A DNA stretch of 64,000 nucleotides, from positions 15,051 through 79,050 of the forward strand of contig CACYPS010000036.1 of NCBI GenBank assembly GCA_902776305.1, read 5' to 3'. The notes under the pieces were generated by a model that ran no database searches, was not told where the DNA came from, and saw nothing but the letters and a program-made list of their open reading frames with translations. Both the position numbers and the translations under genes were made by a program. The stretch is from an uncultured Lachnospiraceae bacterium. Lineage in GTDB: Bacteria > Bacillota > Clostridia > Lachnospirales > Lachnospiraceae. This document shows, one piece after another, positions 1,145 through 22,058 of this stretch (positions within the stretch are counted from its first letter, which is position 1; the number at the start of each line of letters is the position of its first letter).

Positions 1145-2041
1145 TTACCGAAGTAGAGATGAAAAGGGCGAATACTTCGGTAAATTTCGGGGCTGAGCTA
1201 TTGAAATCAAGATGGGATTACCATGGGATTACCGAAGTAGCGGCGAAAAGGATGAATACTTCGGTAAATTTCAGGGCTGAGCCATTGAAATCAAGACGAG
1301 ATTACCGAAGTGAGAGCGAAAAGGGCGAATACTTCGGTAAATTCCTGGGCAGAGTCATTGAAATCAAGATAAGATTACCGAAGTGGGAGCGAAAAGGGCG
1401 AATACTTCGGTAAAATCCGGGGCAGAGCCATTGAAATCAAGATAAGATTACCGAAGTGGGAGCGAAAAGGGCGAATACTTCGGTAAATTTCAGGGCAGAG
1501 CCATTGAAATCAAGAAAGGATTGCCATGTGATTACTGAAGTAGAGATGAAAAGGGCGAATACTTCGGTAAATTTCAGGGTGGAGCTATTGAAATCAAGAT
1601 GAGATTACCCTGGGACTACCGAAGTAGCGGCGAAAAGGGCGAATACTTCGGTAAAATCCGGGGCAGAGCCATAGAAATCAAGAATGGATTGCCATGGGAT
1701 TACCGAAGTAGAGGAGAAAAGGATGAATACTTCGGTAAATTCTGGGGCAGAGTCATTGAAATCAAGATGGGATTACCATGGGATTACCGAAGTAGCGGCG
1801 AAAAGGATGAATACTTCGGTAAATTTTAGGGCAGAGCCATTGAAATCAAGATAAGATTACCGAAGTAGAGAAGAAAAGGGCGAATACTTCGGTAAAATCC
1901 GGGGTTGAGCCATTGAAATCAAGAAGGGATTACCGAAGTGGGAGCGAAAAGGGCGAATACTTCGGTAAAATCCGGGGCAGAGCCATTGAAATCAAGACGA
2001 GATTACCGAAGTGGGAGCAGAATGCAGGTTTACTTCGGTAA
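1145..2041. repeat. Palindromic-unit tandem array A: 12 units of TTACCGAAGTA-N17-TACTTCGGTAA plus linker
   Basis: Left arms at 1145, 1229, 1302, 1375, 1448, 1532, 1616, 1700, 1784, 1857, 1930, 2003. Periods are 73 or 84 bp. Confidence 0.95.
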
Positions 2042-2108
2042 ATACTTGAGCCAAGCCAGAGAAGCAAGACTCAGGTTACGAAAGTATGAGCAGGAATGGA
2101 GATGAAAA

Positions 2109-3053
2109 ATGACCGCGCATGATAAAATACTTGCCGTCAAAGACAATATCGCGAGGGTGCTGGTCGGACGCGAGAATACCGTCTGGCTGGTTCTTACAGC
2201 TCTTGTAACGGGAGGGCATGTGCTGCTTGAAGACATGCCCGGAACCGGGAAGACTTCACTGGCGAGGGCTCTGGCACGCTCAATAGACGCAAAGTTTCGC
2301 CGGATTCAGTTCACGCCGGATTTACTGCCGTCGGATGTCACCGGACTGTCGGTCTGGAATCAGGCGGAGGGGAGATTTGAGCTTCGAGAGGGACCGGCAT
2401 TTGCACATATACTTCTCGCCGACGAGATAAATCGCGCGACTCCGAGGACTCAGTCAGGTCTTCTGGAGTGCATGGAAGAGCGGCAGATCACGACCGATGG
2501 TGTGACCCGCAAGCTCGCGGAACCGTTCTTTGTCATAGCGACGCAGAACCCGGTCGAGACGAGCGGAACCTTTCCGCTCCCGGAGGCGCAGCTTGATCGA
2601 TTCCTTATGAAGCTGAGCCTCGGATTTCCGGACAAGACGGAAGAGATTGCAATTATGGGGCGCTTTCTGCGTGACGACCCGCTCGCTGAGACGGCAGCTG
2701 TAGCCGGTACGGAAGATGTGCTCGCGGCACGTAAAGAAGCCCGTCGTGTAGATGTAGGTCCTGAAATGATGGGTTATATTGCGGATATCGTCATGGCAAC
2801 TCGTGAGCGGCGCGATCTTGCGGCAGGGGTAAGTCCGCGCGGGACTTTGGCTCTGCTTCATTCCGCACAGACACTTGCCTGGCTGAATGGCCGGTCATAT
2901 GTGGTGCCTGAGGACATAAAGGCGCTTGCGGTACCGGTGCTCGCGCACAGGTTGATACCGGCACAGAGCTACGGATATTATCTTGGCCAGGAGAAGGTGA
3001 TGGAGGAGGTGCTGGACATGGTGCCGGTGCCGACGGAGCAGTTCGAGAGGTGA
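2109..3053 (+). CDS. moxR: MoxR-family AAA+ ATPase
   Basis: HVLLEDMPGTGKT (Walker A), RIQFTPDLLPSD, LLADEINRA, ATQNPVE, FPLPEAQLDRF. Confidence 0.93.
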   Translation: MTAHDKILAVKDNIARVLVGRENTVWLVLTALVTGGHVLLEDMPGTGKTSLARALARSIDAKFRRIQFTPDLLPSDVTGLSVWNQAEGRFELREGPAFAHILLADEINRATPRTQSGLLECMEERQITTDGVTRKLAEPFFVIATQNPVETSGTFPLPEAQLDRFLMKLSLGFPDKTEEIAIMGRFLRDDPLAETAAVAGTEDVLAARKEARRVDVGPEMMGYIADIVMATRERRDLAAGVSPRGTLALLHSAQTLAWLNGRSYVVPEDIKALAVPVLAHRLIPAQSYGYYLGQEKVMEEVLDMVPVPTEQFER

Positions 3054-3154
3054 GAATCTCGCTGCTTTATAGAGCCGGATAGTGTTTTTTGAGAGAATTT
3101 TCGTGATAGACGGGGATGAACCGATAGTTCCTGCAGTGAGAAGGAGGTACAGGC

Positions 3155-4504
3155 ATGCTGATATTATGGATCCCGTTAGGGGTCGCCATCATATATCTGC
3201 TCATCCGCGCCGTCTACCTGCGGATCTGGGATCGCGGCCTGTCCGTAGAGCTCGCCTTCGGCCAGCACGCGGTGAGTGAGGGACAGCAAGCCACCCTCAG
3301 AGCGACGGTGACCAACGCCAAGCTGCTCCCGCTTCCGGTCCTGATGCTGCGCTACAAAATGAATCGCGGTCTTAGGATGGGCGAGAATGCAAATGCCACC
3401 GTAACCGACAAACTCAACGTTGTCGAATACTTCAGCGTTCTGGGGAACGAGCGTGTCGTGCGCGAGCAGAAAGTTGAAGCGACGCGCCGTGGATGCTACC
3501 ACATAGATGTCCTGAATCTTATGATGCCGCAGCTGATCTCAGGTCAGGAGAGTTTTCTGGTGCTTCCGCAGGACACCGAGCTGATTGTTTACCCGAAACT
3601 TCTCGAGATCCCGGAAATGTGGGGTATCTGCGAAAAGATTATCGGAGATATCGTCTCCCGCCGCCGTCTCTTTGAGGATGTTTTCTCCTTCCGCGGCATC
3701 CGCGATTACACTCGCACAGACCCGCTCTCTGCCGTCAACTGGAAAGCCACCGCGCGCACCGGGAAAATGATGGTGAACCTGCGCGACTACACCTTCGGCC
3801 AGGAGGTCCGGATCCTTCTCAATCTTGAAGAACCGAATTATCGTTACGGTGAGGATGTTCTGGAAAATGCCATCCGCATCGCCGCCACCGTCGCCTGCCG
3901 CTGTATCAGCGATCGCATTCCGGTGAGCCTGATCAGTAATGCCTGTGTCACAAGCGAGGAGATTCCGGACGAGCAGAATCAGAAAGCAACTGCCCGTACG
4001 CAGAGAATTCTGCATACAAGGCTCCGCAAAATAGAGTATCCCGGGTTCTTATCGCGATGGAGGAAGTCACGTGTTCCTGCCTCTGATTCGGGAACTGCGA
4101 ACGCTGACGCTGCCAACGCTTCCGGCGGATATTATTCCGGGAATGCATCTGAACGCGACTCATTTTCAGGAAAATGTTCGCAAGCTCTCCACGAAGACAG
4201 CCTGAATATCCACGCCGGAGGCTCACAGGATCATATCGCTGTCATCGGCGAGGCTCTGGCGAAAATCGATCTCACAAAGGAGATGGCGCCGTTCACAGAT
4301 ATCATGAGACGGGAGCGTCAGAATATGGCGGACAGTTACGTGACGGTTTGCTTGATTTCATCCGGACGGAGTGATGCAATTATTCGCGAGGCGGAGGCGA
4401 TGGCAAGACAGCAGGACGGAATCTTCTGGATCTGTCCGCTCAGGAAGGATGAGGAGGACAAAGTGATTCCCGGTTCGATTGATTTCAGGCGGATGAATAT
4501 TTGA
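3155..4504 (+). CDS. DUF58 domain protein (MoxR partner) with N-terminal TM
   Basis: FRGIRDYTRTDPLSAVNWKATARTGKMMV is the DUF58 signature; directly downstream of moxR. Confidence 0.85.
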   Translation: MLILWIPLGVAIIYLLIRAVYLRIWDRGLSVELAFGQHAVSEGQQATLRATVTNAKLLPLPVLMLRYKMNRGLRMGENANATVTDKLNVVEYFSVLGNERVVREQKVEATRRGCYHIDVLNLMMPQLISGQESFLVLPQDTELIVYPKLLEIPEMWGICEKIIGDIVSRRRLFEDVFSFRGIRDYTRTDPLSAVNWKATARTGKMMVNLRDYTFGQEVRILLNLEEPNYRYGEDVLENAIRIAATVACRCISDRIPVSLISNACVTSEEIPDEQNQKATARTQRILHTRLRKIEYPGFLSRWRKSRVPASDSGTANADAANASGGYYSGNASERDSFSGKCSQALHEDSLNIHAGGSQDHIAVIGEALAKIDLTKEMAPFTDIMRRERQNMADSYVTVCLISSGRSDAIIREAEAMARQQDGIFWICPLRKDEEDKVIPGSIDFRRMNI

Positions 4505-4577
4505 TCCTTGATTTCACTTTGCGCGCGTATTATAGACTCGCGTCATGAGTATTGTGCGGTGAAGAAAAAAGGACAGC

Positions 4578-4716
4578 AATTGACTGGTTCCGAATGAGAT
4601 CCTTGAAAAATCGGGGTCAAAAGAATTGACTGGTTCCGAAAGAAATCCTTGAAAATTCGGGGGCAAAAGAATTGACTGGTTCCGAATAAAATCCGTGAAA
4701 AAATCGCGGATAAAAG
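4578..4716. repeat. 46-bp tandem repeat, 3 copies
   Basis: AATTGACTGGTTCCGAA at 4578, 4624 and 4670. Confidence 0.9.
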
Positions 4717-4776
4717 AAGTGCAACTGATGTGAACGATGTTTGGATACAGTACAGCTTTGTAGGGGAGGAGGTGAG

Positions 4777-6039
4777 ATGATGAACAGGAAAGACAGGTAT
4801 TTTCCGGATGAGAGCGGGGGGCTATTTGCCTGCCGTATCCTCATGAATATGCTGATCCTGGTCACATTTCCCATTGCCTGCGGTCTCTACATGAAAAAGC
4901 CGCCCGTCGCGCTGCTCTTTTCGGGCATGGAGATGCTTCTTGTCGTTATAATTATGGAAGTGATTCAGAGATGCCTCAAGGGATTCGGCATCTACACGCT
5001 GGCGCATCTGCTGGTATTGCTTCTAATTTATGTAGGAGCGCCGTTCTATGCATATCTGCATCTCGGGGCTGTCGCGGCAGCAACGCTGGTCATGTATTAT
5101 GATCGAACTATGAGGCGGCGCGATTTCTACCCTACTCCCGGCTGGCTGGTCTATCCGGTGATTATATACACAGTGGGATATGTCGGTAAGCATGGGTCGT
5201 TGAGAGTGCTGGGGGTATTTGCAGAAATTGTGCTGATTGCCCTTTTCTTCTTCTATCAGAACCAGCGGGGAATGGATCGCACATTCAACACCGCGAAAGA
5301 TTACGTCAGGGTGCCTTATCGCAAGATGAAGATGGTGAATGCGTGGGTGTTCGGGGCATTTGCGGTGCTTGCGGTCGTTCTGGCGCTCCTTCTGTCGCAG
5401 CTCTTCAACGGAGAGGCCATCGTCAGGATGATCGGGAAGGGACTGCTTGCCGGATATGCGCTTTTTACGTTGGGCTTATTTTGGCTTCTCGGTCATCTGT
5501 TCCCGAAGGGGGGAGGAGATGCCATGGCGAGCATGGATTCCGCTGACATAGCGGCGATGCTGGCGGCTTTTCAGGAGGAACATCCGTACCTGTCGATGCT
5601 GTGGTACGCATTTCAAATGTTGATGTGCGTAATCAGTATGTTTGTCGCGGCCTACCTGCTTTATCGCCTGTGGGTCGAATTTTATCGGAATTTTCGGACG
5701 GCGGACCTTGAGACGGATGATGTCCGCCTGAAGATAGTCAATGAAGAGGACAAATCTCGTTCCCGAGCTCCCCGGAAGACCATCCGCAGAATGGGTTTCT
5801 TCAGCCCCGCCGCGAAAGTGCGGAGGATGTATGTCAGGTATATTCGAAGACATTCCGGGCTTGACCGCATTCGCCTGTCTCACACCCCGACCGAGCTTGA
5901 GCACGCGGTGACCGCGCGCGGAGACGTGAGAATCCGTGACCTTTACGAGAGGGCGCGGTACGCGCCGGAGCTGGTGACGGAGGAACATGTGCGTGAGATG
6001 AGGGAGTGCTGCAGGGGGTTGGAGAGAGAAGAGAAATGA
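4777..6039 (+). CDS. Polytopic membrane protein with C-terminal DUF4129-like domain
   Basis: Many TM segments; C-terminal TPTELE...RDLYERARYAP; GGAGGTG RBS before ATG 4777 (preferred over TTG 4741). Confidence 0.7.
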   Translation: MMNRKDRYFPDESGGLFACRILMNMLILVTFPIACGLYMKKPPVALLFSGMEMLLVVIIMEVIQRCLKGFGIYTLAHLLVLLLIYVGAPFYAYLHLGAVAAATLVMYYDRTMRRRDFYPTPGWLVYPVIIYTVGYVGKHGSLRVLGVFAEIVLIALFFFYQNQRGMDRTFNTAKDYVRVPYRKMKMVNAWVFGAFAVLAVVLALLLSQLFNGEAIVRMIGKGLLAGYALFTLGLFWLLGHLFPKGGGDAMASMDSADIAAMLAAFQEEHPYLSMLWYAFQMLMCVISMFVAAYLLYRLWVEFYRNFRTADLETDDVRLKIVNEEDKSRSRAPRKTIRRMGFFSPAAKVRRMYVRYIRRHSGLDRIRLSHTPTELEHAVTARGDVRIRDLYERARYAPELVTEEHVREMRECCRGLEREEK

Positions 6040-6057
6040 ATGCCGGCAGAGCAAAGT

Positions 6058-6242
6058 TTACGGAAGCAGAGACGAATTTGTCGGATACTTCCGTAAAGTC
6101 TGAAGAGAAATCAATGTCGGATAGTGTAGTTTACGGAAGTGGGAACGCTTTTGCCGGATACTTCCGTAGAGTCAGAGAAGAAATCAATGTCGGATAGTGT
6201 AGTTTACGGAAGCAGGAACATTTTTGCCGAGTACTTCCGTAA
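6058..6242. repeat. Palindromic-unit array B: 3 units with variant arms TTACGGAAG(T/C)..ACTTCCGTA(A/G)
   Basis: Left arms at 6058, 6131, 6204; period 73; 17-nt spacer. Confidence 0.9.
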
Positions 6243-6290
6243 ACATAAGAAATATGAGATTCTGCAGCCCATTTTACAGAAGGAGGATTT

Positions 6291-7781: not shown

Positions 7782-8090
7782 ACAGAAGGTCGGCACAGAC
7801 GGAAAACCATGTACCGGCGGTGCATACGCGAGAAGTCATGGGTACTCGGCAAAAGGGACCGAATTACCCCTTGAAACTCCACCCTACCTTCGTTAGACTA
7901 TACATATATAGTCGAGCTTTGGCTCTGACATATAAGTTATTCGGCGATACATTCCGGCGCAAAAGATTTTCTGATGCGCTCCGGCGAATCACAGCCGCGC
8001 AATAAAGTATTTACACTATGCTCTGCGCGGCAAGAACACATATGCTTTCTAAAATATAAAGAAAGCAATGATAACAAAAGGGGATAAAAA

Positions 8091-8925: not shown

Positions 8926-9303
8926 ATGGAAACACTTAACAGTTTTGATATTTCAATGTTCCAACCGTCAACAGGCTCATTCGTATTCGGCATCGTAGTA
9001 GCAGTACTTGCTGTCGTTATTCTCTACAAGATCTTTGAGAAGGCCGGCGTAGAAGGCTGGAAGGCATTTATTCCGCTTTATAATATTTTTGTTCTTTATG
9101 AACTCACATGGGGCAACGGCTTTGTAAGTCTTCTGCTTCTTGTACCGATCGTAGATATCGTCATCTCAGTTATGACGGCTATCAAGCTGGCAAAGGCATT
9201 TGGTAAGGGAACAGGTTTCGGTATCGGAATCTTCTTCTTCCCGGTCATCTGCAAGGGAATCATTGCATTTGACGAATCCAGATATGAAGGCGTACCGGCG
9301 TAA
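8926..9303 (+). CDS. DUF5684-like membrane protein
   Basis: YKIFEKAGVEGWKAFIPLYN and LAKAFGKGTGFGIG. Confidence 0.8.
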   Translation: METLNSFDISMFQPSTGSFVFGIVVAVLAVVILYKIFEKAGVEGWKAFIPLYNIFVLYELTWGNGFVSLLLLVPIVDIVISVMTAIKLAKAFGKGTGFGIGIFFFPVICKGIIAFDESRYEGVPA

Positions 9304-9314
9304 AGCTGATATGG

Positions 9315-9344
9315 AAGAGCATCGCTTCGGCGGTGCTCTTTTTT
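9315..9344 (+). terminator. Intrinsic terminator
   Basis: AAGAGCATCGC-TTCG-GCGGTGCTCTT followed by a T-run, just after stop 9303. Confidence 0.85.
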
Positions 9345-9390
9345 CGTTGACAAATGAGGAAAAAAATTTCTTTGGGAAATTTGCAAAACG

Positions 9391-9432
9391 ATTAGCCCTC
9401 CCCCCGGGGATCTCCGTACAAATAGATGTAAG
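9391..9432 (+). promoter_or_regulatory. Conserved 42-bp upstream element, copy 1
   Basis: 37/42 identical to 10905-10946; each copy precedes one TolA-like paralogue. Confidence 0.55.
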
Positions 9433-9466
9433 AACAAAAGAAAAGATAAAAAGGGAGAACAAAACT

Positions 9467-10594
9467 ATGAAGAACAGACTCGCAGCCATCATCATCGCAA
9501 CATCACTCGTACTTGGACTCGGAGCAGGTGTCGGCGGAGCTTTCATATATAATAATACAAAGAATGTAAAGACAACGGAAGTCACAGCGACTGTTGAAAA
9601 TGCAGCAGACACCAAAGCCGAAGAGACGAAGGCAGAGACTGTAACAGCTGCACCGAAGCAGGACACACAGAAAGCTTCCGACCAGAACGCAGCAGCAAAG
9701 AAAGCAGCTGAGGAAAAGGCCGCTAAGGAAGCAGCTCAGAAGAAGGAAGCCGAGAAGAAGGCAGCCAAGAGAGCAGCTGAGAGAAAGGCTGAGCAGGAGA
9801 AGGCAGCTAAGAAAGCCGCTGAAGAAAAGGCAGCTAAGAAAGCAGCCGAGAAGAAAGCCGCTGAAGAGCAGGCAGCTAAGAAAGCAGCTGAGAAGAAAGC
9901 CGCTGAAGAGAAGGCAGCTAAGAAGGCAGCTGAGAAGAAAGCCGCTGAAGAGCAGGCAGCTAAGAAGGCAGCTGAGAAGAAGGCAGCCGAGGAGAAGGCA
10001 GCTAAGGAAGCAGCCGAGAAGAAAGCCGCTGAAGAGCAGGCAGCAAGAAAAGCAGCTGAGAAGAAAGCCGCTGAAGAGCAGGCAGCAAGAGAAGCAGCTG
10101 AGAAGAAAGCCGCTGAAGAGCAGGCAGCAAGAGAGGCAGCTGAGAAGAAAGCAGCCGAGGAGCAGGCAGCAAGAGATGCTGAAGCTGAGAAGAACACAGT
10201 ATCCCGCAAGACAGTCGAGGGTATGGTAACAGATGTAAATGGCAACTCCATCAGCGTGAGAATCGAGGGCGGAAACGCAACATTTGACATCAGCAAAGCA
10301 ACAGTCAACGGAACACCGAAGGTTGGCGACAACGTCTCCGTAACATACAACACAGACGGAACAGACATCATCTCTGTAATCTCTGTAACAGTCACATCTT
10401 CCGAAGCTGATAGAGAAGCAAACGTAGAAGAGTGGTATGGCAACGGCGAGCAGGCTGAGGAGCAGCCGGCAGTCGTTGAAGAGCAGGAAGCTCCTGCAGT
10501 AGAAGAGCAGGTCGTAGAGAGCGCTGCCGAAGAGCAGGAGAACGTCGAGCCGGTCGCTGCTGAAGAGTGCTACGATGAAGTAGAAGAGGCATAA
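9467..10594 (+). CDS. Membrane-anchored Ala/Lys/Glu-repeat (TolA-like) rod protein with one small beta (OB/DUF5666-like) domain
   Basis: MKNRLAAIIIA hydrophobic leader, long [10 protein letters not shown] repeats, [20 protein letters not shown] domain, acidic tail. RBS favours ATG 9467 over 9200. Confidence 0.75.
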   Translation: MKNRLAAIIIATSLVLGLGAGVGGAFIYNNTKNVKTTEVTATVENAADTKAEETKAETVTAAPKQDTQKASDQNAAAKKAAEEKAAKEAAQKKEAEKKAAKRAAERKAEQEKAAKKAAEEKAAKKAAEKKAAEEQAAKKAAEKKAAEEKAAKKAAEKKAAEEQAAKKAAEKKAAEEKAAKEAAEKKAAEEQAARKAAEKKAAEEQAAREAAEKKAAEEQAAREAAEKKAAEEQAARDAEAEKNTVSRKTVEGMVTDVNGNSISVRIEGGNATFDISKATVNGTPKVGDNVSVTYNTDGTDIISVISVTVTSSEADREANVEEWYGNGEQAEEQPAVVEEQEAPAVEEQVVESAAEEQENVEPVAAEECYDEVEEA

Positions 10595-10633
10595 TAAACT
10601 CGGATCTTCCAAAAAACATATAAAGATAACAGC

Positions 10634-10667
10634 ACAGCCGTGCCGGGAAACCGGTGCGGCTGTTTTT
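10634..10667 (+). terminator. Intrinsic terminator
   Basis: ACAGCCGTGCCGG-GAAA-CCGGTGCGGCTGT followed by a T-run. Confidence 0.85.
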
Positions 10668-10904
10668 ATCGTATAGGAAATTACACGAATTTCCTGTACG
10701 ACAAAAGCCTCAGCTACACAATGCTCCACTGGAGCATTGTTACGCATGCTTAGGCACGGCAGGATGAGCAGAAGATTTACATCTCCAAGCATCTGGATGA
10801 GCTTCGCGAGAAGGCCCTCAAAATTAGACTTTGCCAGAGTAAACCTGCGGCTCAAAGTCTAATTAAATTTGGTAAATAAACTGCCTGTAATTCTTTCATA
10901 TATT

Positions 10905-10946
10905 ATTAGCCCTCCCCCATGGTATCTCCGTATTAATAGATGTAAG
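10905..10946 (+). promoter_or_regulatory. Conserved 42-bp upstream element, copy 2
   Basis: ATTAGCCCTCCCCCATGGTATCTCCGTATTAATAGATGTAAG, paralogous to 9391-9432. Confidence 0.55.
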
Positions 10947-11011
10947 GCGAAAAGCAAAACAAAAGGAAATCATTCACAAGACCTTTTACATATAGAAGAG
11001 GAGAAAATACC

Positions 11012-12676
11012 ATGAAGAACAAAGTTGTAGCAATGATCATCGCAGCATCAATGGTAGTAGGACTTGGCGCTGGCGTAGGCGGCGCATGCATATATACAAA
11101 CATCAAAAACGCACAGACAACAGAGATTACTGCAACTGTCGAGAACGCTTCTCCGGAAACAGTAACATCTGACAGCAAAGAGGATAAGAAGGCTGACACT
11201 GTAACAGCGAAGCCGATCCAGAATACACAGAAAGCTTCCGACGCTAAGAAGGCAGCCGAGGAAAAGGCAGCTAAGGAAGCCGCTGAGAAGAAGGCAGCTG
11301 AGAAGAAAGCAGCCGAGAAGAAAGCCGCTGAGAAGAAGGCAGCCGAGAAGAAAGCAGCCGAGAAGAAAGCAGCTGAGCAGAAGACAGTCGAGAAGAAGGC
11401 AGCCGAGAAGAAGGCAGCCGAGAAGAAAGCAGCCGAGAAGAAAGCAGCCGAGGAAAAGGCAGCTAAGGAAGCAGCTCAGAAGAAGGCCGCTCAGGAGAAG
11501 GCAGCTAAGGAAGCAGCTCAGAAGAAAGCCGCCGAGGAGAAGGCAGCTAAGGAAGCAGCCGAGAAGAAAGCCGCTCAGGAAAAGGCAGCTAAGGAAGCAG
11601 CCGAGAAGAAGGCAGCTGAGGAGAAGGCAGCTAAGGAAGCAGCCGAGAAGAAGGCAGCTGAGGAGAAGGCAGCAAGAGAACGCGCAGAACAGATCAGAAT
11701 CTATCAGGATACAAAGACCGGTATGATCACATCTGTCGATGGCAACACAATCAGCGTACGCATCGAAGGCGGTAATGCAACATTTGACATCAGCAATGCG
11801 ACTGTAAACGGAGCCCTCATGGAAGGTGACAACGTCACAATCATATATGATACAGACGGAACAAATATCTCCCCGCTCTATGTATATGACAATACAACAG
11901 ATGAGGAGAGACAGGCAAACCTTGACGAGTGGAGAGGCACCGGCGAGCAGCCAGCTCAGGAAACAGTCGAAGTACAGGATGAAGAGGACATCGAGAACGA
12001 TATTGAAGCAGCTGCTGAAGAGCAGGCTCGTATCGAAGAGGAAATGAGACAGGCAGAGGCAGAGCGCGTAGCAGCAGAGCAGGCAGAAGCAGAGCGTATC
12101 GCAGCAGAGCAGGCAGAGGCAGAGCGCGTAGCAGCAGAGCAGGCAGAAGCAGAGCGCATCGCAGCAGAGCAGGCAGAGGCAGAGCGCGTAGCAGCAGAGC
12201 AGGCAGAAGCAGAGCGCATCGCAGCAGAGCAGGCAGAGGCAGAGCGCATCGCAGCAGAGCAGGCAGAGGCAGAGCGCATCGCAGCTGAAGAAGCAGAGCG
12301 TGCAGCAGCTGAAGCAGCAGAGGCAGAGCGTATCGCAGCAGAGCAGGCAGAGGCAGAGCGCATCGCAGCAGAGCAGGCAGAGGCAGAGCGTATCGCAGCA
12401 GAGCAGGCAGAGGCAGAGCGCATCGCAGCAGAGCAGGCAGAAGCAGAGCGTGCAGCAGCTGAAGAAGCAGAGCGCGCAGCAGCTGAGGCAGCAAAGGCAG
12501 AGGAAACACACTCAGTCTCCGGTACAGTAACAAGCGTATCCGATTCTTCCATCACAATCAGCACAGATAACGGTGAGAAGACACTTGATGCATCGAGCGT
12601 ATCTACAGACGGAATCTCTGAAGGCAGCTACGTAACAGTAGAGTACAGAAATGGCTCAGCCGTTTCTATCAGATAA
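11012..12676 (+). CDS. Paralogous TolA-like rod protein with two small beta domains separated by [10 protein letters not shown] repeats
   Basis: Same leader and [15 protein letters not shown] domain as the 9467 gene; 30-bp repeats at about 12050-12500; C-terminal [15 protein letters not shown] domain. Confidence 0.75.
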
Positions 12677-14048: not shown

Positions 14049-14095
14049 AGAAATACCGATAAATATGGGGAGAAGCAACAAATCAAGGGGAGCAA

Positions 14096-15793
14096 ATGAA
14101 TCAATCACAAAATCGTGCCGGCCGCAAGGGGAGGACCGGCAGAAAAAAGCCGTCCGCGAAAAAACCGGCTGCAAGGAAAGCAGCCGGCAGGAGCTTCACG
14201 GGAGGCAATCGGAAAACCGCACGGACCGGAAGCAGTGCGCGGACCGGTAGAGGCGGAAGAGCAGGGAAGTCTTCCGGCGGCAGACCTGTACTTAAACTTA
14301 TTGTAGGCTTTCTGATTGTTGCGGCTTTTATAGCCGCGACCGGTTATGTCGTCTATGCGGACCGCTACGAGAGCCATTTTATTGAAGGTACGGTCATCAA
14401 TAACAATGATGTCGGCGGATTGAATCTGGAGGAGGCGAAAAATCTTCTCGCCAATTCCTCCGATTATCAGATTGAGATAGATTTTCGGGATGGGGGCAGC
14501 GAGTGGATTTCCGGTGACAGCATTTCCCTGGGATACGAATACGGGGATGGTGTTGAGCAAATGCTCGCATCCCAGGACAAGTACCACTGGATAGAAGGCG
14601 TCCTGGGTGAGACGCGCAGTTATACGATTGATAATGGCGTGCATTTTGATGAAGAACAGCTTGCATCGATCGTGAACTCTTTTCCTGAGCTTGCCGGGGA
14701 TACGCAGATTGCACCTGTCGATGCGAGGTGCGTGAGGACTGCGGAGAATGCATTTGCCATCGAACCCGAAAGTGAGGGGAATTGGATTGAGAGCAGCAGG
14801 GCATTTGCCTGTATCAGTGAGGCAATCGGGCAGCAAAAACGGCTGCTCAACCTGAGTACTGCAGGTGCTTATGAGTCGCCGGCTGTCACGGCGGATGACC
14901 CGGAGCTCAACGAGAGGGTCGCACAGCTGAACCGTTTTCTGGAGACGACGGTGACTTATGATCTGCCGGATGGCGGTCAGTGGACTGTCGGTCGGGACAC
15001 GCTGATCGAGTGGGTGTCGGCGGGTGCAGGGGGTGAAAACTCCGGGGCGGATATTACAGAGGAAGGTGATTCCGGGACGGATGGCCGGGAGATGGGCAAT
15101 TCTGAGACGGGTGATTCTGAGACGGGTGGCTCGGTGATGGATTATTACTTAGATGCTCAGGTCATTTCCGGCAAATGCGCCGAAGCCATCGCATCCCTCG
15201 CTTCCATCGTTGACGACATCCACACGAGCCGCACTTTCTGTGCGACAAGCGGCAGAACTGTTGATATTGCCAGCGGCACCTTCGGCCGGCAGATCGACCA
15301 GGCTGCGGAAGTCGAACAGCTTGCGGCGAATCTGCTCAATTTTGAGAACGCCGAGAGGGAGCCGGCTTACCTCATGAATACATATCCCGAATCGCTGAAC
15401 GGTGGTGATTATATAGAAGTGGACCTGAGCAACCAGATGGTCTATCTGTACAAGGATGGAGGGCTGTTCTACGACACGCCCTGTGTCTCGGGTCTCGCCG
15501 ACGATCCGGAGCGGGTGACGATCACCGGGCTTTTCAAGATTCAGGAGAAGGACAGGGACAGGACGCTCAAGGGGAAGCCGGACGAGAACGGGGTGCCGAC
15601 ATATGAGTCGTTTGTCAGCTACTGGATGGGATTTTCGGGTGCTTACGGGCTGCACGATGCTACATGGAGAGATGAGTTCGGCGGAGATATTTATGAATAT
15701 GCCGGGTCGCACGGATGCGTGAATCTGCCTTATTCGGCGGCGGAGGCCATATTTAATAATGTGGAGGAGGGGACACGGGTTATTGTGTTCTAA
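14096..15793 (+). CDS. L,D-transpeptidase (YkuD) with peptidoglycan-binding region and basic N-terminal tail
   Basis: YIEVDLSNQMVY, GAYGLHDATWR, GSHGCVNL (catalytic HxxxxC-type motif); one TM after an Arg/Lys-rich tail. Confidence 0.9.
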   Translation: MNQSQNRAGRKGRTGRKKPSAKKPAARKAAGRSFTGGNRKTARTGSSARTGRGGRAGKSSGGRPVLKLIVGFLIVAAFIAATGYVVYADRYESHFIEGTVINNNDVGGLNLEEAKNLLANSSDYQIEIDFRDGGSEWISGDSISLGYEYGDGVEQMLASQDKYHWIEGVLGETRSYTIDNGVHFDEEQLASIVNSFPELAGDTQIAPVDARCVRTAENAFAIEPESEGNWIESSRAFACISEAIGQQKRLLNLSTAGAYESPAVTADDPELNERVAQLNRFLETTVTYDLPDGGQWTVGRDTLIEWVSAGAGGENSGADITEEGDSGTDGREMGNSETGDSETGGSVMDYYLDAQVISGKCAEAIASLASIVDDIHTSRTFCATSGRTVDIASGTFGRQIDQAAEVEQLAANLLNFENAEREPAYLMNTYPESLNGGDYIEVDLSNQMVYLYKDGGLFYDTPCVSGLADDPERVTITGLFKIQEKDRDRTLKGKPDENGVPTYESFVSYWMGFSGAYGLHDATWRDEFGGDIYEYAGSHGCVNLPYSAAEAIFNNVEEGTRVIVF

Positions 15794-15822
15794 ATGGAGA
15801 GAATTAATGCCGGTGGCCGGGA

Positions 15823-16157
15823 TTACCGAAGTAAACGAGATTTTAAGCAATACTTCGGTAAAGTTATCTTGCCTTCATGGACCATAAGGCTCTGATTTAC
15901 CGAAGTAAACAAGTTTTTGGGCAGTACTTCGGTAATCCTATCTTGCTTTCATGGACCATAAGGCGTTGATTTACCGAAGTAAACAAGTTTTTGGGCAGTA
16001 CTTCGGTAAATCAATCTTGTACTCATGACATGCAAGCCGCCGAATTACCGAAGTAAACAAGTTTTTGAGCAGTACTTCGGTAATCCTATCTTGCTTTCAT
16101 GGACCATAAGGCGTTGATTTACCGAAGTAAACGAGATTTTTCTCGATACTTCGGTAA
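15823..16157. repeat. Palindromic-unit array C: 5 units, linker inverted relative to array A
   Basis: Left arms at 15823, 15897, 15971, 16045, 16119; period 74; 17-nt spacer. Confidence 0.95.
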
Positions 16158-16245
16158 ATGCATCAAGAAAGTCAGGCCAGGCAAGGAAAGCACAGTATTT
16201 TGCTGAGAGATAACTTACCAGCATCAGTATAAAGGAGGAGACAGT

Positions 16246-17289
16246 ATGAAGCTCGCAATTATCGGAACCGGGAAAATCGTTCACGAGGCGTTGTTTGCCT
16301 TGGAACCGGTCGACAGAGTGGAGGTCGTGGCTATATTTGCCCGTCCGCACAGCAAGGAAAAAGCCGAAGCATTGGCAGAAAAGTACGGAATCGGTGAAGT
16401 TTACACAGACTACGATGAGCTGCTGGCTAAATCCGATGCGCAAGCGGTCTACATCGGTCTTGTGAACAGCGCGCATTTCCCGTATGCGAAGAAGGCTCTG
16501 CTCGCGGGCAAGGATGTTATCCTTGAGAAGCCGCTGACCACGACGGCGGCGGAGGCGAAGGAGCTCGCGGCTCTTACGAAGGAGACAGGCAAGTATGTGC
16601 TTGAGGCAATCACCACGATGCACAGCCAGATTTTCGATTTGATGCAGGAAGAGCTGCCCAATCTGGGCAATATCCGGTCTGCTCAGCTCAATTATTCTCA
16701 GTATTCGAGCCGTTATACGGATTATCTGGCAGGCAAGGTGGCGCCGGCGTTCGATCCGGAGTGTTCCGGAGGCGCGCTCTATGATATCAACCTTTATAAT
16801 GTCTATTTTGTTGTCGGGCTGCTTGGAAGTCCGGAGACGGCAACATATTTCCCGAACAGAGGTTTCAATGGAATTGATACGTCCGGTACGGCAATCCTGA
16901 CATATCCGACTTTCAACGCGGTCTGCACCGGAGCCAAGGATTCCGACAGCCCGTGCTTCTCCATCATTCAGGGTGAGAAGGGATGGATGCGTGTAAATGG
17001 GAAGCCGAATGTCATGACCGGTCTTGATGTAGAGGTAGTGGATGAGGAAAACCCGCGTCAGGTTCCGAGCGCATCCGGCGGCATGCAGAGGGCGGTTATC
17101 ACGAGACATCATGAGGCTGATCCGGTGCATCATCGCATGACGAGAGAGTTCGGAGATTTTGCGCGGATCATCGAGGAGCGGGATGACGAGGCGGCTGCCA
17201 AGGCTATCGCGACGTCGGTGCAGGTCATGACGGTTCTCGAGACGGCGCGGAAGGCAGCCGGGATTAGATTCGGGGTGGACACAGACTGA
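16246..17289 (+). CDS. Gfo/Idh/MocA-family oxidoreductase
   Basis: MKLAIIGTGKI, VILEKPL, GGALYDINLY. Confidence 0.9.
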   Translation: MKLAIIGTGKIVHEALFALEPVDRVEVVAIFARPHSKEKAEALAEKYGIGEVYTDYDELLAKSDAQAVYIGLVNSAHFPYAKKALLAGKDVILEKPLTTTAAEAKELAALTKETGKYVLEAITTMHSQIFDLMQEELPNLGNIRSAQLNYSQYSSRYTDYLAGKVAPAFDPECSGGALYDINLYNVYFVVGLLGSPETATYFPNRGFNGIDTSGTAILTYPTFNAVCTGAKDSDSPCFSIIQGEKGWMRVNGKPNVMTGLDVEVVDEENPRQVPSASGGMQRAVITRHHEADPVHHRMTREFGDFARIIEERDDEAAAKAIATSVQVMTVLETARKAAGIRFGVDTD

Positions 17290-17469
17290 ACTCCGGGATT
17301 ACGGAAGTGGAATATTTAGAGAAAGTAGACAAAAAACACCAAGATATTTCTGCACTTCTCCGCTCAAGTTTACAATTTTTATAGTGAGTTTCGCCCGTAA
17401 AATGATATAATAACTTCATATAGTATGAGTAAACACGCAACTATAAAAAGGAAAGGTGGATTAATCAAT

Positions 17470-18450
17470 ATGAGCACAGAAAAGAAGATTGATGTTACTG
17501 CCCTCGGCGAACTTCTGATCGACTTCACAGAAAGCGGATTGAGCCCGCAGGGCAACAAGCTCCTGGAAGTCAACCCGGGCGGAGCACCGTGCAACGTTCT
17601 CGCCATGCTGAATAAGCAGGGCCGCAAGGCTGCTTTCCTCGGCAAAGTCGGCGACGACATGTTCGGAAGAATGCTGAAAGCCAGGACCATCGAGCAGGGC
17701 ATCGACATGACAGGCCTCATGATGGATGAAGAAGTTCATACAACGCTCGCATTTGTTGAGAAACTGCCGAACGGCGACAGAGATTTCTCCTTCTACCGCA
17801 ATCCGGGCGCAGACATCATGCTCACCAAAGACGAAGTCATCGCCAACAAGGCTCTCATCGAGGATGCAAAGATCTTCCATTTCGGAACTCTTTCCATGAC
17901 ACACGAAGGCATCGAGGCAGCTACGATTGAAGCTCTTGACATTGCAAAGGCAAGCGGCGCTATCATCTCCTTCGACCCGAACCTTCGTCCGCCTCTCTGG
18001 AGCTCCGAGGAGAAAGCAAAAGAGAAGATCGCCTATGGTCTTTCCAGATGCGACGTCCTGAAGATTTCCGACAACGAGATCGAGTTCATGACCGGCGAGT
18101 CCGATCTGGACAAGGGCATCAAGATGATCATCGACGAGTATAAGATTCCGCTTGTATTTGCTACCTATGGTCCGGACGGCTCCAAGGCATACTGCAACGG
18201 CGTTGAAGCTTACGAAGCCGGTTTCCTTAATCCGGCAACGATCGAGACGACCGGCGCAGGCGATACATTCTGCGCAAGCGCTCTGCATTTCGTCCTGAAA
18301 TACGGTCTGGAAATGAACGAAGAGCAGCTCCATGAGCTTCTTGTTTTCGCAAATGCAGCCGCATCTCTCGTAACCACCAAGAAAGGCGCGCTCTGCGTAA
18401 TGCCGACTCCGGATGAAGTAGCAGCTTATATCAAGGAGAGCGGAAGGTAA
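17470..18450 (+). CDS. PfkB-family sugar kinase (fructokinase-like)
   Basis: LGELLIDF, NPGGAPCNV, FDPNLRPPLW, ETTGAGDTF. Start placed at ATG 17470. Confidence 0.88.
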   Translation: MSTEKKIDVTALGELLIDFTESGLSPQGNKLLEVNPGGAPCNVLAMLNKQGRKAAFLGKVGDDMFGRMLKARTIEQGIDMTGLMMDEEVHTTLAFVEKLPNGDRDFSFYRNPGADIMLTKDEVIANKALIEDAKIFHFGTLSMTHEGIEAATIEALDIAKASGAIISFDPNLRPPLWSSEEKAKEKIAYGLSRCDVLKISDNEIEFMTGESDLDKGIKMIIDEYKIPLVFATYGPDGSKAYCNGVEAYEAGFLNPATIETTGAGDTFCASALHFVLKYGLEMNEEQLHELLVFANAAASLVTTKKGALCVMPTPDEVAAYIKESGR

Positions 18451-18551
18451 CGAGACGTTCTGTTTCTGCATTTTCACATCTATGCAGGAATCAAAATACA
18501 CAATTAATACACGCTTTGCACACAAACCGATGCTATTTTGGTAATGTAGTG

Positions 18552-18588
18552 ATGACCCCCGGTGGATATTCCTGCCGGGGGTCATTTT
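18552..18588 (+). terminator. GC-rich hairpin followed by Ts (terminator of the kinase gene or 5' leader hairpin of the PBP gene)
   Basis: ATGACCCCCGG...CCGGGGGTCAT then TTT. Confidence 0.55.
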
Positions 18589-18609
18589 GACCAGGGAAGG
18601 AGGAAATCC

Positions 18610-21204
18610 ATGCAAAGCGGACACAGACGGGTAATCATAAAGCGGATTGCCATGACCTTGGGAATTCTGATGCTGGGAGCGATGTTCGCCGGCGCAGGAT
18701 TTCTTTTTTATTGTATGATGACAGCTCCCTCCATATCCATTCTGGATGCAAGGCCTCAGGGGTATCGCTCCAGCGTATTGGATGATGAGGGAAATGTCGT
18801 TCTCACCTTATCCGGCGAAGAGTCCAACCGCGTGTATGTGACGCTCGGGGAGATGCCGGAGGATTTGCAGCATGCATTTGTTGCAATCGAGGACGAGAGA
18901 TTCTACGAGCACCATGGGATCGATCCGAGGGGAATCGCGAGGGCATTTTTCAGAGGTATACAGAGCGGAGGTTTTTCGGAGGGCGCAAGCACCATTACGC
19001 AGCAGCTTTTGAAGAATAACGTCTTCGAGGGATGGACGGGCGAGGCTACATTTTATGACCGCCTGGTGCGCAAGCTGCAGGAGCAGTACCTGGCGATCTG
19101 CCTTGAGATGCATGTGACGAAGGACTGGATCCTTGAAAATTACATGAATACCATCAACCTTGGCGGCGGAAACTGGGGCGTTGAGACGGCGGCGAAGTAC
19201 TATTTTCACAAGGACGTCACCGCGCTGAATCTCAGCGAATGCGCAGTGCTTGCCGGCATCACCAAGAATCCCACGAGGTATAATCCGAGGATTAATAAGG
19301 AAGCAAATGCCTCCCGGCGCGAATTAGTCCTCTCCAAAATGAAGGAGCTCGGCTTCATAACGGAAGATGCATACAATGAAGCCATGGCTGACGATGTCTA
19401 CGTGAGAATTGAACAGGCGGAAAATGAACCGCTCGACAACACGGAGATTCTCACGTACTTTGAGGATGCCATGATATATGATGTTCTTGCAGATATCATG
19501 GCGGTAACTGGCTGCAGTGAGGAGGTCGCGTGGAAAATGATCTACCGTGGAGGTCTCACGATCCATTCGACCGAGAACAGTGTTCTGCAGCAGATCTGTG
19601 AGGACGAGGCAAACAATCCCGACCTCTACAGCACGGACGCGCAGGTGTCCATGGTCGTCATCGATACGCAGACCGGACAGGTCAAAGCCATGGTCGGCGG
19701 GCGCGGGCAGAAGACAGCCTCTCTGATCCTGAACAGGGCGACCAGCGAACCTCGTCAGCCGGGATCGACAATCAAAATCATCGGAGAGTATGCAGCGGCT
19801 CTGGATAAGGGCGAGATTACGCTGGGAACTATATTTGATGACGCTCCGTACACCTATTCCGACGGAACGGAGGTTCAGAATTCGGACGGGTCTTACGGCG
19901 GCTTTACTACCGTGCGAAGCGCAATCGTGAAATCCAACAATATCGTTGCACTGAAGACATTCCAGAAGATGGGAGTTGATGCAGTCTGGAATGAACTGAA
20001 CAACTTCGGGATTTCAACCCTTACGGATGATGACCGGGTGGAGGCACTTGCCCTCGGCGGTCTGACCAACGGCGTGACCAACCTCGAACTCACCGCCGCC
20101 TATGGGACGATCGCCCGCGGCGGGACATATATCAGGCCTACATATTATACTAAGATCGTCGATCACGACGGAAATGTGATCGTCGATAAGCAGACAGAGA
20201 GCAGAAAGGTCATTTCGGAGAGTACGGCGGCGCTTCTCACAAATGCCATGGAAGACGCGATTTGGTCGGGTACGGGAGCGGATGCGGCATTTGAAGGAAT
20301 GGATATAGCGGGAAAGAGCGGTACTTCGACAGATGGCGTTGATCTATGGTTCGTCGGCTATTCACCCTATCTCACCTGCGGCGTGTGGGGCGGCTATGAT
20401 GATCGGTCCGGGCAGGAGGAATCCACCTATGTCAAGAGCGTGTGGAAGACAGTCATGTCGAGAGCGCATGAGTCCCGTGAGTACATGCATCTGAGCAGCG
20501 AGGACGGATTAAAAACGGTCGTGATCTGTAAAAAATGCGGGAAGGTCGCAATCGAAGGCCTGTGTGATTCCACACAGCAGGGGGATATGACCGTGACGGA
20601 ATTTTACGTGCCCGGAACAGAGCCGACAGAGAAATGTGACTGTCATGTGTCAGTGAAAGTATGTGATTCTTCAGGGCTGAAGGCCAACAAGTACTGTAAG
20701 GATACCCACACGGAGGTTTACTTGAAGAGTGCGACCCCGGGAACGGCAGATGAGGAATATGTTCTGCCGGATTATCTCGAGAGTGGGGAGTGCAAGGAGC
20801 ACAAGAGTTCATGGTCTACGTTCTGGGGGAACGGAAATTCAGGTAACGGTTCCGGGAGCGGTTCCGGCTCCGGGAACGGCTCCGGCGGGGGCTCGAGTGG
20901 ATCAAATAGCGGTTCGGGATCGAATAACGGCTCCGGGAATGGTGGATCCGGTGGAGCAGGTTCGAATAACGGCTCAGGGAATGGCAGCGGCTGGGACTTC
21001 TGGGGCGGAGGATCCGGCGGCGATTCGGGAAACGGAGGATCCGGCGGGTCAGGTTCGAGTAACGGAAGCGGCAGCTCCGGCAGCGGATCGTTTTCGGACT
21101 GGTGGGATTCGCTCTGGGGGAGCGGTTCGGCCGGGGATTCGGGGGAGAATCGGTCTGAGAGGGGCGAGTATGATTCTGAGAATGGGACATATTGGAGCTG
21201 GTGA
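18610..21204 (+). CDS. Class A penicillin-binding protein (PBP1A family) with Gly/Ser/Asn/Trp-rich C-terminal tail
   Basis: Transglycosylase motifs EDERFYEHHG and GASTITQQL; transpeptidase motifs STIK, SNN, KSG; CxxC-containing domain; low-complexity tail. Confidence 0.92.
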   Translation: MQSGHRRVIIKRIAMTLGILMLGAMFAGAGFLFYCMMTAPSISILDARPQGYRSSVLDDEGNVVLTLSGEESNRVYVTLGEMPEDLQHAFVAIEDERFYEHHGIDPRGIARAFFRGIQSGGFSEGASTITQQLLKNNVFEGWTGEATFYDRLVRKLQEQYLAICLEMHVTKDWILENYMNTINLGGGNWGVETAAKYYFHKDVTALNLSECAVLAGITKNPTRYNPRINKEANASRRELVLSKMKELGFITEDAYNEAMADDVYVRIEQAENEPLDNTEILTYFEDAMIYDVLADIMAVTGCSEEVAWKMIYRGGLTIHSTENSVLQQICEDEANNPDLYSTDAQVSMVVIDTQTGQVKAMVGGRGQKTASLILNRATSEPRQPGSTIKIIGEYAAALDKGEITLGTIFDDAPYTYSDGTEVQNSDGSYGGFTTVRSAIVKSNNIVALKTFQKMGVDAVWNELNNFGISTLTDDDRVEALALGGLTNGVTNLELTAAYGTIARGGTYIRPTYYTKIVDHDGNVIVDKQTESRKVISESTAALLTNAMEDAIWSGTGADAAFEGMDIAGKSGTSTDGVDLWFVGYSPYLTCGVWGGYDDRSGQEESTYVKSVWKTVMSRAHESREYMHLSSEDGLKTVVICKKCGKVAIEGLCDSTQQGDMTVTEFYVPGTEPTEKCDCHVSVKVCDSSGLKANKYCKDTHTEVYLKSATPGTADEEYVLPDYLESGECKEHKSSWSTFWGNGNSGNGSGSGSGSGNGSGGGSSGSNSGSGSNNGSGNGGSGGAGSNNGSGNGSGWDFWGGGSGGDSGNGGSGGSGSSNGSGSSGSGSFSDWWDSLWGSGSAGDSGENRSERGEYDSENGTYWSW

Positions 21205-21222
21205 TGTAAGGGGTATGTGAGG

Positions 21223-21556
21223 GGTTACTATTCAGCTGCCAGCCACATATGCATATCCTGTGTCATCGGTATACATATTCATCGGTAAACTCTTGTCCAG
21301 CCTTGCGAAACGAAAAACCATATCTGCAATATGTGTTCCCGCGTGTCGCTAAACGCATACACTTGGTCACACATATTGCAATGGTATTTGAGTGGTTACT
21401 ATTCAGCTGCCATTCACATATGCATATCCTGTGTCACCGGTATACGTATTCATCGGTAAACTCTTGTCCTGCCTTGCGAAACGAAAAACCATATCTGCAA
21501 TATGTGTTCCCGCGTGTCGCTAAACGCATACACTTGGTCACACATATTGCAATGGT
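21223..21556. repeat. 171-bp direct tandem duplication with internal hairpin
   Basis: GGTTACTATTCAGCTGCC at 21223 and 21394; copies nearly identical. Confidence 0.92.
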
Positions 21557-21667
21557 TTTTGTTTCTCGGCAGGACTGCGAATGTTTACCGCTTGAATAGT
21601 ATACCGTTTGCCACAGGGGTGACGGATAGAGGAGGCAGCTGAATGGTAACCGGAAGTAGGTGGCGAT

Positions 21668-22058
21668 TTACCGAAGTAATTGAGATTATGCGCTGTACTT
21701 CGGTAAAGCTATCTTGCTTTCATGTACCATAAGCCGCCGGATTACCGAAGTAATTGAGATTTTGCGCAATACTTCGGTAATCCTATCCTGCTTTCATGGA
21801 CCACAAGCAGCCGAATTACCGAAGTAAATGAGAATTTGAGCAGTACTTCGGTAATCCTATCCTGCTTTCCGAATTACCGAAGTAAATGAGAATTTGTGCA
21901 GTACTTCGGTAATCCTATCCTGCTTTCATGGACCACAAGGGGCCGAATTACCGAAGTAATCGAGCTTTTGCGCAATACTTCGGTAAAGCTTTCCAGCTTT
22001 CATACCCAAGAGGCCCAATTTACCCAAGTAAGCAAGTTTTTGAGCCGTACTTCCGTAA
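21668..22058. repeat. Palindromic-unit array D: 6 units
   Basis: Left arms at 21668, 21742, 21816, 21874, 21948, 22020; periods 74, 74, 58, 74, 72. Confidence 0.93.

Follow-up and report, generated by a model that had tools for sequence, protein, structure and literature searches.

A lineage-specific family of phased palindromic arrays in a Lachnospiraceae genome and its candidate PD-(D/E)XK partner protein

REP sequences are imperfect palindromes of 20 to 40 bp, one end of which bears a conserved tetranucleotide, GTAG or CGTC (PMC3733652). In SBW25, REPINs form ordered tandem arrays of up to 12 units with fixed doublet spacings of 71 and 110 bp, and each repeat family has one single-copy enzyme gene (PMC3116915). 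Until now REP/RAYT has been the chief case of a repeat family and its own enzyme persisting together in bacterial chromosomes over long periods. Here we describe a family of palindromic-unit arrays from an uncultured Lachnospiraceae bacterium. Four of these arrays, A to D, lie in the 64-kb stretch of DNA that we analyzed, referred to as the window (C36:15051-79050; window coordinates are C36 coordinates minus 15050). They are best explained as "orphan" copies of a lineage-specific, genome-wide family of phased palindromic sites. We consider it probable that the arrays are rows of bipartite double-stranded sites, placed on one face of the helix, for a protein of the PD-(D/E)XK type, in a partnership resembling that of REPINs and RAYTs. 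Full-text literature searches returned no description of this pairing of palindrome arrays with a nuclease-like protein.

The unit found in the window is TTAC(C/G)GAAGTA-N17-TACTTC(G/C)GTAA, and 26 such units make up the four arrays. Fifteen exact matches to TTACCGAAGTA-N17-TACTTCGGTAA were present in the window, compared to none in 100 shuffles. When up to two mismatches per arm were allowed, all 26 units were recovered, in agreement with a preliminary description of this stretch, made from the sequence alone, which had reported 12, 3, 5 and 6 units in arrays A, B, C and D over about 1.8 kb. The interior is 17 nt long in every one of the 26, as was also claimed. A recount of the unit spacings gave the same figure as before, 20 of 22 being 73, 74 or 84 bp. 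They run 84, 73, 73, 73, 84, 84, 84, 84, 73, 73 and 73 bp in array A; 73 and 73 bp in array B; 74 bp four times in array C; and 74, 74, 58, 74 and 72 bp in array D. The 84-bp variant, visible in array A, results from partial duplication of the left arm of the 73-bp unit (11 bp, GGGATTACCAT). The linker motif points one way in arrays A and B and the reverse way in C and D, and + strand open reading frames (ORFs) precede all four; both statements had been made in the preliminary description.

The family extends through the whole assembly (4.08 Mb in 128 contigs). We counted 286 units in 71 arrays or singletons (16 of them single units), about 21.5 kb in total; 14 arrays are located at contig ends, and array A is the largest of all. 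The fixed spacer and the 73- or 74-bp period hold across the genome, and the geometry is under constraint. The interior measures 17 nt in 286 of 293 dyads, and spacings of 72 to 75 bp account for 198 of 215, with 84 bp in six, double units in three and single slips in the remainder. Identity within arrays and between arrays, respectively, is 97% and 88% for arms, 85% and 42% for loops, and 75% and 33% for linkers; a linker position carries about 0.1 bit of information, compared to 2 bits in the arms. Because the arms are so much more alike between arrays than the loops and linkers, whose lengths are fixed, only the arms plus the loop and linker lengths are conserved between arrays. A search of the whole window against Rfam gave nothing at gathering score, and its sole weak match was at chance level (26 bits against a 54-bit cut-off). 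A dispersed family that matches neither Rfam nor the searchable papers bears out the earlier suggestion of a REP/BIME-like element of an unrecognized type.

The arm family is restricted to this Lachnospiraceae species and its closest relatives. The window arms occurred in 0 of 24 same-genus genomes and in 0 of 16 other genomes of the same order, and only as chance singles when one genome from each of 400 Lachnospiraceae genera was examined. When 185,579 species were scanned for exact matches, arrays turned up solely in RGIG2452 (G440), a metagenome-assembled genome (MAG) from goat ileum that has 69 units and whose DNA is 93 to 95% identical to this genome. At the site orthologous to array A, RGIG2452 has 2 or 3 units compared to 12 here. 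Moreover, an array of two units (198 bp) immediately follows the MoxR stop codon in RGIG2452 and is missing at that point of the window (3053/3054). The arrays therefore vary in length and are gained and lost over short evolutionary times. At the MoxR site, the one resolved presence/absence site and one without an outgroup, the extra segment both begins and ends within linker-like sequence, and no duplication is clear past 1 to 2 nt.

B-DNA has about 10.5 bp per turn, and the preliminary description had equated the 73-, 74- and 84-bp distances with 7 and 8 turns. Within a single genome, where a tandem repeat keeps its unit length by descent, a fixed period of 73 or 74 bp is not in itself evidence of phasing, and the 84-bp period arises from an arm duplication. 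Across arm families phasing is supported. In at least 24 arm families linked to homologues of the candidate partner gene described below, the periods are 42, 53 to 54, 61 to 64, 72 to 75, 84 and 105 to 108 bp, with none between. At 10.5 bp these periods give a mean resultant length of 0.87, a value reached by none of 100,000 random draws (P < 1e-5 against uniform periods), and the class means fit a step of 10.45 bp. Since period classes are partly inherited, the independent period events are fewer than the loci. Periods also switch within single arrays, between 63 and 73, 61 and 72, and 73 and 84 bp. Quantization at about 10.5 bp across arm families is a property of double-stranded DNA and is as predicted for phased sites on it; it points to double-stranded recognition and is the strongest support for phased binding sites.

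The palindromic structure could also act as RNA or as a single strand, with the units serving, as REP/BIME do in mRNA, as transcript 3'-end stabilizers, attenuators or processing sites, or as single-stranded DNA hairpins for an HUH-type enzyme. Several observations fit this explanation. Stem pair 5-35 shows compensatory change (C-G in 39 arrays, G-C in 26, mixed or mismatched in 6), and within the loop another pair covaries (G15-C25 in 142 units, C-G in 29). Single units folded as single strands are modestly stable (-8.6 to -9.9 kcal/mol, z about -2.0 to -2.4). Arrays lie nearer to stop codons than to starts, mostly past the former, and an IS200-like Y1 transposase is present in the genome. 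However, the orientation of the arrays is not tied to transcription (26 against 14 genome-wide, no significant bias). The wobble types favor no strand (pair 10-30, 26 T.G versus 50 C.A; pair 11-29, 47 G.T versus 12 A.C), and arrays are also found between divergent genes (7 of 56), with co-directional, convergent and divergent gaps occurring at about the background proportions of the genome. A period step of about 10.5 bp would be meaningless for RNA, Rfam offered no match, and the Y1 gene belongs to what appears to be a multi-copy insertion sequence (IS) at contig ends, not flanked by arms. We regard RNA or single-strand action as very unlikely. Loop-based and linker-based orientations sometimes disagree, so no single array "polarity" can be defined.

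The Y1 transposase was also considered as a possible partner. The genome has one 153-aa IS200-like copy matching PF01797 (C51:30391-30723), beside a group II intron reverse transcriptase, and PF01797 fragments at the ends of five contigs (C84, C9, C116, C41 and C35), of which only C116 and C35 carry units of the family. The position of these fragments suggests that the IS is multi-copy and that the assembly breaks at it. RAYT/IS200 was rejected as a partner, as the PF01797 copies resemble an IS and the full one, on C51, has no arms at its sides. No Y1/RAYT-type gene occurs on the contig of the window, consistent with the earlier statement that the window holds no transposase or RAYT gene. A YhcG/DUF1016 nuclease is encoded in the genome and was discarded, being nowhere near the arrays. 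All-against-all BLAST of flanking ORFs for a recurrent array-neighbor gene returned just common paralogues (ABC transporters, glycosidases and Fe-ADH). The region downstream of comEC was likewise dismissed as an array neighborhood, as no arrays are there; it holds a small island (C31:45960-56064) of unknown genes together with a gene set resembling type I restriction-modification.

An inventory of genes with an array on either side yielded one candidate, outside the window, at C67:13000-13806. This gene encodes a protein of 268 aa, is single-copy and the sole gene of its kind in the genome, and occupies an AT-rich segment with one array of this family on its upstream side and another on its downstream side. 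The protein had no sequence match in Pfam, NCBIfam or the PDB. An AlphaFold model built from 42 homologues reached a pLDDT (the confidence score of the model) of 91. For the C-terminal 120 residues, the strongest Foldseek matches were PD-(D/E)XK nucleases (Bax1, DrdV, 3ijm, MunI, BamHI and Hjc); Foldseek also returned a few unrelated folds. E162, P191-D192, E207-H208 and an RSKxE helix are invariant in the 42 homologues, and the canonical Lys after E207 is absent. The N-terminal half consists of long, coiled-coil-like helices and a beta hairpin. With an alpha/beta core and a conserved acidic constellation, the modeled protein fits the PD-(D/E)XK (restriction endonuclease-like) superfamily and is nuclease-like in its fold.

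PADLOC models match residues 141 to 263 of the protein: PDC-S68 (E = 2e-27), HEAT_CxxC_PD-DEXK (down to 1.6e-7) and, over the same residues, PDC-S69. The same C-terminal nuclease domain is found in frames of 1,112 to 1,245 aa of other Lachnospiraceae that match the PADLOC candidate PDC-S68 (Table 1); the domain thus also exists fused to a much larger protein. These matches raise the question of a role in defense, with the nuclease as an anti-phage or anti-plasmid effector and the chromosomal arrays as decoys, sensors or self-marks. The family is large and fast-diversifying (3,440 clusters at 50% identity, E <= 1e-30), without a name in any library searched, and its distribution is patchy and multi-paralogous, all of which would suit a defense system. 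On the other hand, the nuclease domain alone is shared with the PADLOC candidates, and not the architecture. The neighbors are not consistently defense genes (glgX/EamA, PRK/pseudouridine synthase and glycosyltransferase/NAT were seen), and the unit interiors are not unique spacers, being 75 to 85% alike within an array. A defense function seems to us highly improbable.

Within the genus, homologues of the protein were found in 16 of 36 genomes; among the Lachnospiraceae, 40 of 150 sampled genera have them, and of 24 other families in the order only 1 does. The copies number 1 to 7 per genome and are diverged, some being pseudogenes, and many lie 200 to 750 bp from contig ends. We scored arrays at these loci as an exact 6-mer dyad recurring at 40 to 125 bp, with locus L033 read by eye. 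Regular dyad arrays lay within about 1.5 kb of the gene at 30 of 55 loci, whereas the same rule was positive in 6.3% of 1,500 random 3.8-kb windows of this array-rich genome. The enrichment is about 9-fold (binomial P = 5e-22, the loci not being independent). The preliminary description had proposed looking for a co-distributed HUH/RAYT or DNA-binding gene; the PF01797 copy on C51 is not flanked by arms, and the gene accompanied by arrays is a nuclease-like one. The arm sequence tracks the protein tree. This genome and the syntenic orthologue at locus L030, 62% identical, have TAC[CG]GAAGTA-N17 at 73 bp in common, and loci L031 and L032 have the arm TTACGGTGT in common. The two paralogues in genomes G452 and G448 have arms GGCAGCAA and GAGGCAAC, respectively. 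G452, G448 and G022, which carry these paralogues, contain 46 to 56 dispersed exact GGCAGCAA units and 20 to 38 GAGGCAAC units; neither kind of unit occurs in two same-genus genomes lacking the gene.

These results bear on whether the arrays need a partner at all. They might instead be neutral or selfish hairpin minisatellites, expanding through slippage and spreading through recombination, whose adjacency to the gene reflects shared permissive spots. Such a satellite would account for the 70 of 71 arrays that have no such gene nearby and for RGIG2452, where arrays are present and the gene was not detected. Repeats do co-accumulate here, since a dispersed 171-bp repeat sits beside five arrays. 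However, it would not predict the enrichment of arrays at homologue loci, an arm that follows the protein clade even for two paralogues inside one genome, or cognate units only in genomes with the paralogue. Arms that stay alike between arrays while linkers are randomized and lengths are kept are also unlike neutral drift. We consider a partnerless satellite quite unlikely.

Another possibility is that the arrays are useful to the host, as transcription roadblocks or insulators at gene ends or in chromosome structuring, and that the protein is domesticated, mainly DNA-binding and auto-regulating, and does not spread the arrays. The helical phasing, which points to double-stranded DNA binding, agrees with this, as does the position of arrays close to stop codons with start regions spared. 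At the homologue loci the array is upstream of the gene in 24 of 28 cases, 70 to 670 bp away, an operator-like position, and this genome and L030 have a conserved block after that array in common. Against such a function stand the patchy distribution within the genus and among genera, the pseudogenes, the several diverged paralogues per genome with arms of their own, the invariance of catalytic-type residues, and the gain and loss of arrays between genomes 93 to 95% identical. These features are typical of selfish or conflict-driven elements and not of housekeeping architecture, and we rate the host-useful explanation as rather unlikely.

We favor a partnership of the arrays with the nuclease-like protein, which could work as follows. 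Each 73- or 74-bp unit would be one bipartite site composed of inverted 10-bp half-sites, TAC(C/G)GAAGTA, 17 bp apart. Successive sites would be 7.0 helical turns apart, or 8.0 in the 84-bp variant, and because these are whole turns they would share one face of the double helix. The 268-aa protein, the gene of which is bracketed by arrays of the same family, is the likely ligand. Protein dimers would read both half-sites and pack cooperatively along the array. If the arms were then nicked or cut, repair and slippage could add or remove whole units, and new arrays might occasionally be seeded just past stop codons. The outcome would be a long-lived partnership of repeat and enzyme that follows the REPIN/RAYT logic with a different enzyme and geometry. 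What the data show are the unit structure and its fixed lengths, the narrow and polymorphic distribution, the linkage of gene and arrays with arms that vary along with the protein clade, the nuclease-like fold and the quantized periods; binding, cooperativity, cutting and a part for the protein in spreading the arrays are what we infer. The preliminary description had offered two alternatives, phased binding arrays for a dimeric protein such as a nucleoid organizer and a REP/BIME-like element. The geometry and phasing of the former agree with our data (at least 24 arm families, steps of about 10.5 bp), and the nucleoid organizer gives way to a likelier ligand, the PD-(D/E)XK nuclease-like protein. 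As this likely ligand is encoded between arrays, the two alternatives merge, the binding arrays being at the same time repeats of a selfish type.

Several observations weigh against this partnership. The half-site centers are 27 bp apart, that is, 2.6 turns, so the two half-sites of a unit are not on one face. Compensatory arm change is expected equally of a hairpin in single-stranded DNA or RNA. The Foldseek E-values are weak, the best being 5e-3 over about 120 columns. The two arrays flanking the candidate gene are mutually inverted here and direct at loci L048 and L053, so there is no transposon-like terminal structure, and a target-site duplication was not resolved at the single polymorphic site compared between RGIG2452 and the window. 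Under the exact-6-mer rule, no array was seen within 1.5 kb of the gene at 25 of 55 homologue loci, and 70 of the 71 arrays in this genome are far from the candidate gene. Linkage and co-variation of arm and clade could partly reflect co-inheritance of neighboring DNA. Finally, RGIG2452 has its 69 units and no detectable homologue, in a MAG of 2.7 Mb that is probably incomplete.

Loop or linker motifs such as GCAAGAAT and TTGAAATCAAGA are common to arrays of the window, L038, L053 and G452 that have quite different arms, and they occur now in the loop and now in the linker. It looks as if arms have been exchanged on a shared backbone.

The features are listed in Table 1. In the window, arms are confined to 1145-22058, the first 22 kb, plus the half-sites at 2076 (degenerate) and 17299 (lone). 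Array A is flanked by a pepF-like gene, which stops at 1097, and by a MoxR-like gene that starts at 2109. The arms of array B are the symmetric variant CGGAAG/CTTCCG, and the array starts 19 nt past the stop codon at 6039; array C starts 30 nt past the stop codon at 15793. The half-site at 17299 has no right arm at N17 and is for this reason read as, probably, a decayed solo unit. In array D, one unit has a 16-bp linker deletion and the final unit is degenerate.

Table 1. Positions of the palindrome arrays, half-sites and large nuclease-domain frames. Positions are window coordinates, except for the last three rows, which refer to other genomes.
Feature	Position	Strand	Description
Array A	1143..2058 (Tandem Repeats Finder [TRF] extent; units 1145-2041)		12 units TTACCGAAGT(A/G)-N17-TACTTCGGTAA + linker; periods 73 and 84 bp
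Degenerate 13th left arm TTACGAAAGTA	2076..2086	+	Decayed end of array A
Array B	6027..6243 (units 6058-6242)		3 units; arms TTACGGAAG(C/T)(A/G)...TACTTCCGTA(A/G); period 73 bp
Array C	15823..16158 (units 15823-16157)		5 units; period 74 bp; loop and linker reversed relative to A and B
Lone variant half-site TTACGGAAGTG	17299..17309	+	10 nt past stop codon at 17289
Array D	21664..22059 (units 21668-22058)		6 units; periods 74, 74, 58, 74, 72 bp
Large frame with nuclease domain	G089:C1:955692-956057
Large frame with nuclease domain	G150:C13:69374-69739
Large frame with nuclease domain	G160:C6:156034-156390

Array D sits between a 171-bp repeat in two copies and a bidirectional terminator-like hairpin. 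The two tandem copies of this 171-bp element occupy 21212-21561 of the window and contain a TGCAATATGTGT...ACACATATTGCA hairpin. About 20 copies are dispersed through the genome; in five cases (C36, C7, C3, C29 and C1) the element is no more than about 300 bp from a palindrome array, and a relative of it adjoins the orthologous array in RGIG2452 (L007). No Rfam family matched the element. Two other differences from RGIG2452 were seen in the window. An intergenic 46-bp repeat, three tandem copies at 4578-4718, has a different copy arrangement there, and at 4107-4120, within the ORF at 3155-4504, RGIG2452 has about 165 extra bases, an in-frame-looking coding indel. Long in-frame tandem repeats of 15, 30 and 42 bp that encode A/E/K-rich sequence span 9692-12502 and fall in two + strand ORFs, 9200-10594 and 11012-12676. 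At about position 28000 the G+C content, until there about 0.50, falls to about 0.42 and remains at this level through the rest of the window, across a block of Tad-pilus, kinase and glycan genes. No palindrome arm occurs anywhere in this low-GC part, which is consistent with a more recently acquired segment.

A second independent example of a repeat family with a dedicated enzyme would show such partnerships to be a general solution and not a proteobacterial oddity. It would be distinguished by another enzyme fold, another phylum and a clear double-helix phasing rule. In practical terms, the arrays fragment short-read assemblies of rumen and gut Lachnospiraceae, as seen here from those at contig ends, and the unit number, which differs between close relatives, could be used to tell strains apart. 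Among the members of the protein family there may be many specificities for long DNA sites, and each could be read directly from the array next to the gene. A bolder proposal, which we put forward tentatively and hold to be less probable than not, is that of an unrecognized two-part element class in Firmicutes. A sequence-specific PD-(D/E)XK protein would assemble in register on the phased arrays, which would be both its own control region and self-propagating "colonies," new specificities would arise by co-evolution of arm and protein, and the thousands of clusters would be a natural library of programmable long-site binders or nickases.

Among known systems, REP/BIME and REPIN-RAYT of Enterobacteria and Pseudomonas are likewise short extragenic palindromes in tens to hundreds of dispersed copies, often in ordered tandem arrays. 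In them too, each repeat family brackets one single-copy enzyme gene, and several paralogous enzyme-repeat pairs occur per genome and are mostly inherited vertically. In REPIN-RAYT systems, many extragenic copies go with one single-copy enzyme gene specific to the family; likewise, one gene here goes with 71 intergenic arrays or singletons. However, RAYT is a Y1 HUH transposase (PF01797), whereas the array-bracketed gene encodes a predicted PD-(D/E)XK fold, and the position table of the 286 units has no invariant terminal GTAG or CGTC tag in the arms. The unit here is a 39-bp dyad with a length-fixed 17-nt interior and a length-fixed linker, its periods are quantized at about 10.5 bp, which points to double- rather than single-stranded recognition, and its host belongs to the Lachnospiraceae (Firmicutes).

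Iteron and centromere arrays, such as R1 parC/ParR and F sopC/SopB, are tandem phased repeats that adjoin the gene of their binding protein, which binds cooperatively. The family-level phasing (R = 0.87, step of 10.45 bp) and the adjacency of arrays at 30 of 55 genes recall these systems, although 70 of the 71 arrays here are remote. Theirs are single, plasmid-borne and undispersed, whereas one gene here faces 71 chromosomal arrays, and the protein has a nuclease fold as modeled. In the NIMEs of Neisseria, dRS3 inverted repeats bound variable RS units, and the pneumococcal BOX has the structure boxA-boxB(n)-boxC. Both resemble the present family in being intergenic arrays with short conserved inverted repeats around variable interiors and unit numbers that differ between strains. 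dRS3 is an integration site for phage or for an IS110-type recombinase. We know of no partner enzyme for BOX, and to our knowledge neither NIMEs nor BOX have periods quantized in helical turns or a PD-(D/E)XK partner.

CRISPR arrays share the regular geometry in which a conserved palindromic part alternates with variable interiors of fixed length. In contrast to CRISPR, the interiors here are near-copies within an array (75 to 85%), the conserved part is a split dyad and not a direct repeat, no cas genes are adjacent, the neighbors being housekeeping genes, and there are tens of arrays per genome. The PADLOC candidates PDC-S68, PDC-S69 and HEAT_CxxC_PD-DEXK have a homologous C-terminal nuclease domain (E values of 2e-27 to 1.6e-7), but they are single proteins of about 1,200 aa, or of 290 aa with other N-terminal domains, and have no reported link to repeat arrays. 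The hallmark of miniature inverted-repeat transposable elements is terminal inverted repeats with target-site duplications, inserted as single defined units; at the one resolved site here the extra segment begins and ends in linker-like sequence, with no duplication clear past 1 to 2 nt. We place the family with the dispersed palindromic repeats that have an enzyme of their own, as a variant with another candidate enzyme fold and another geometry.

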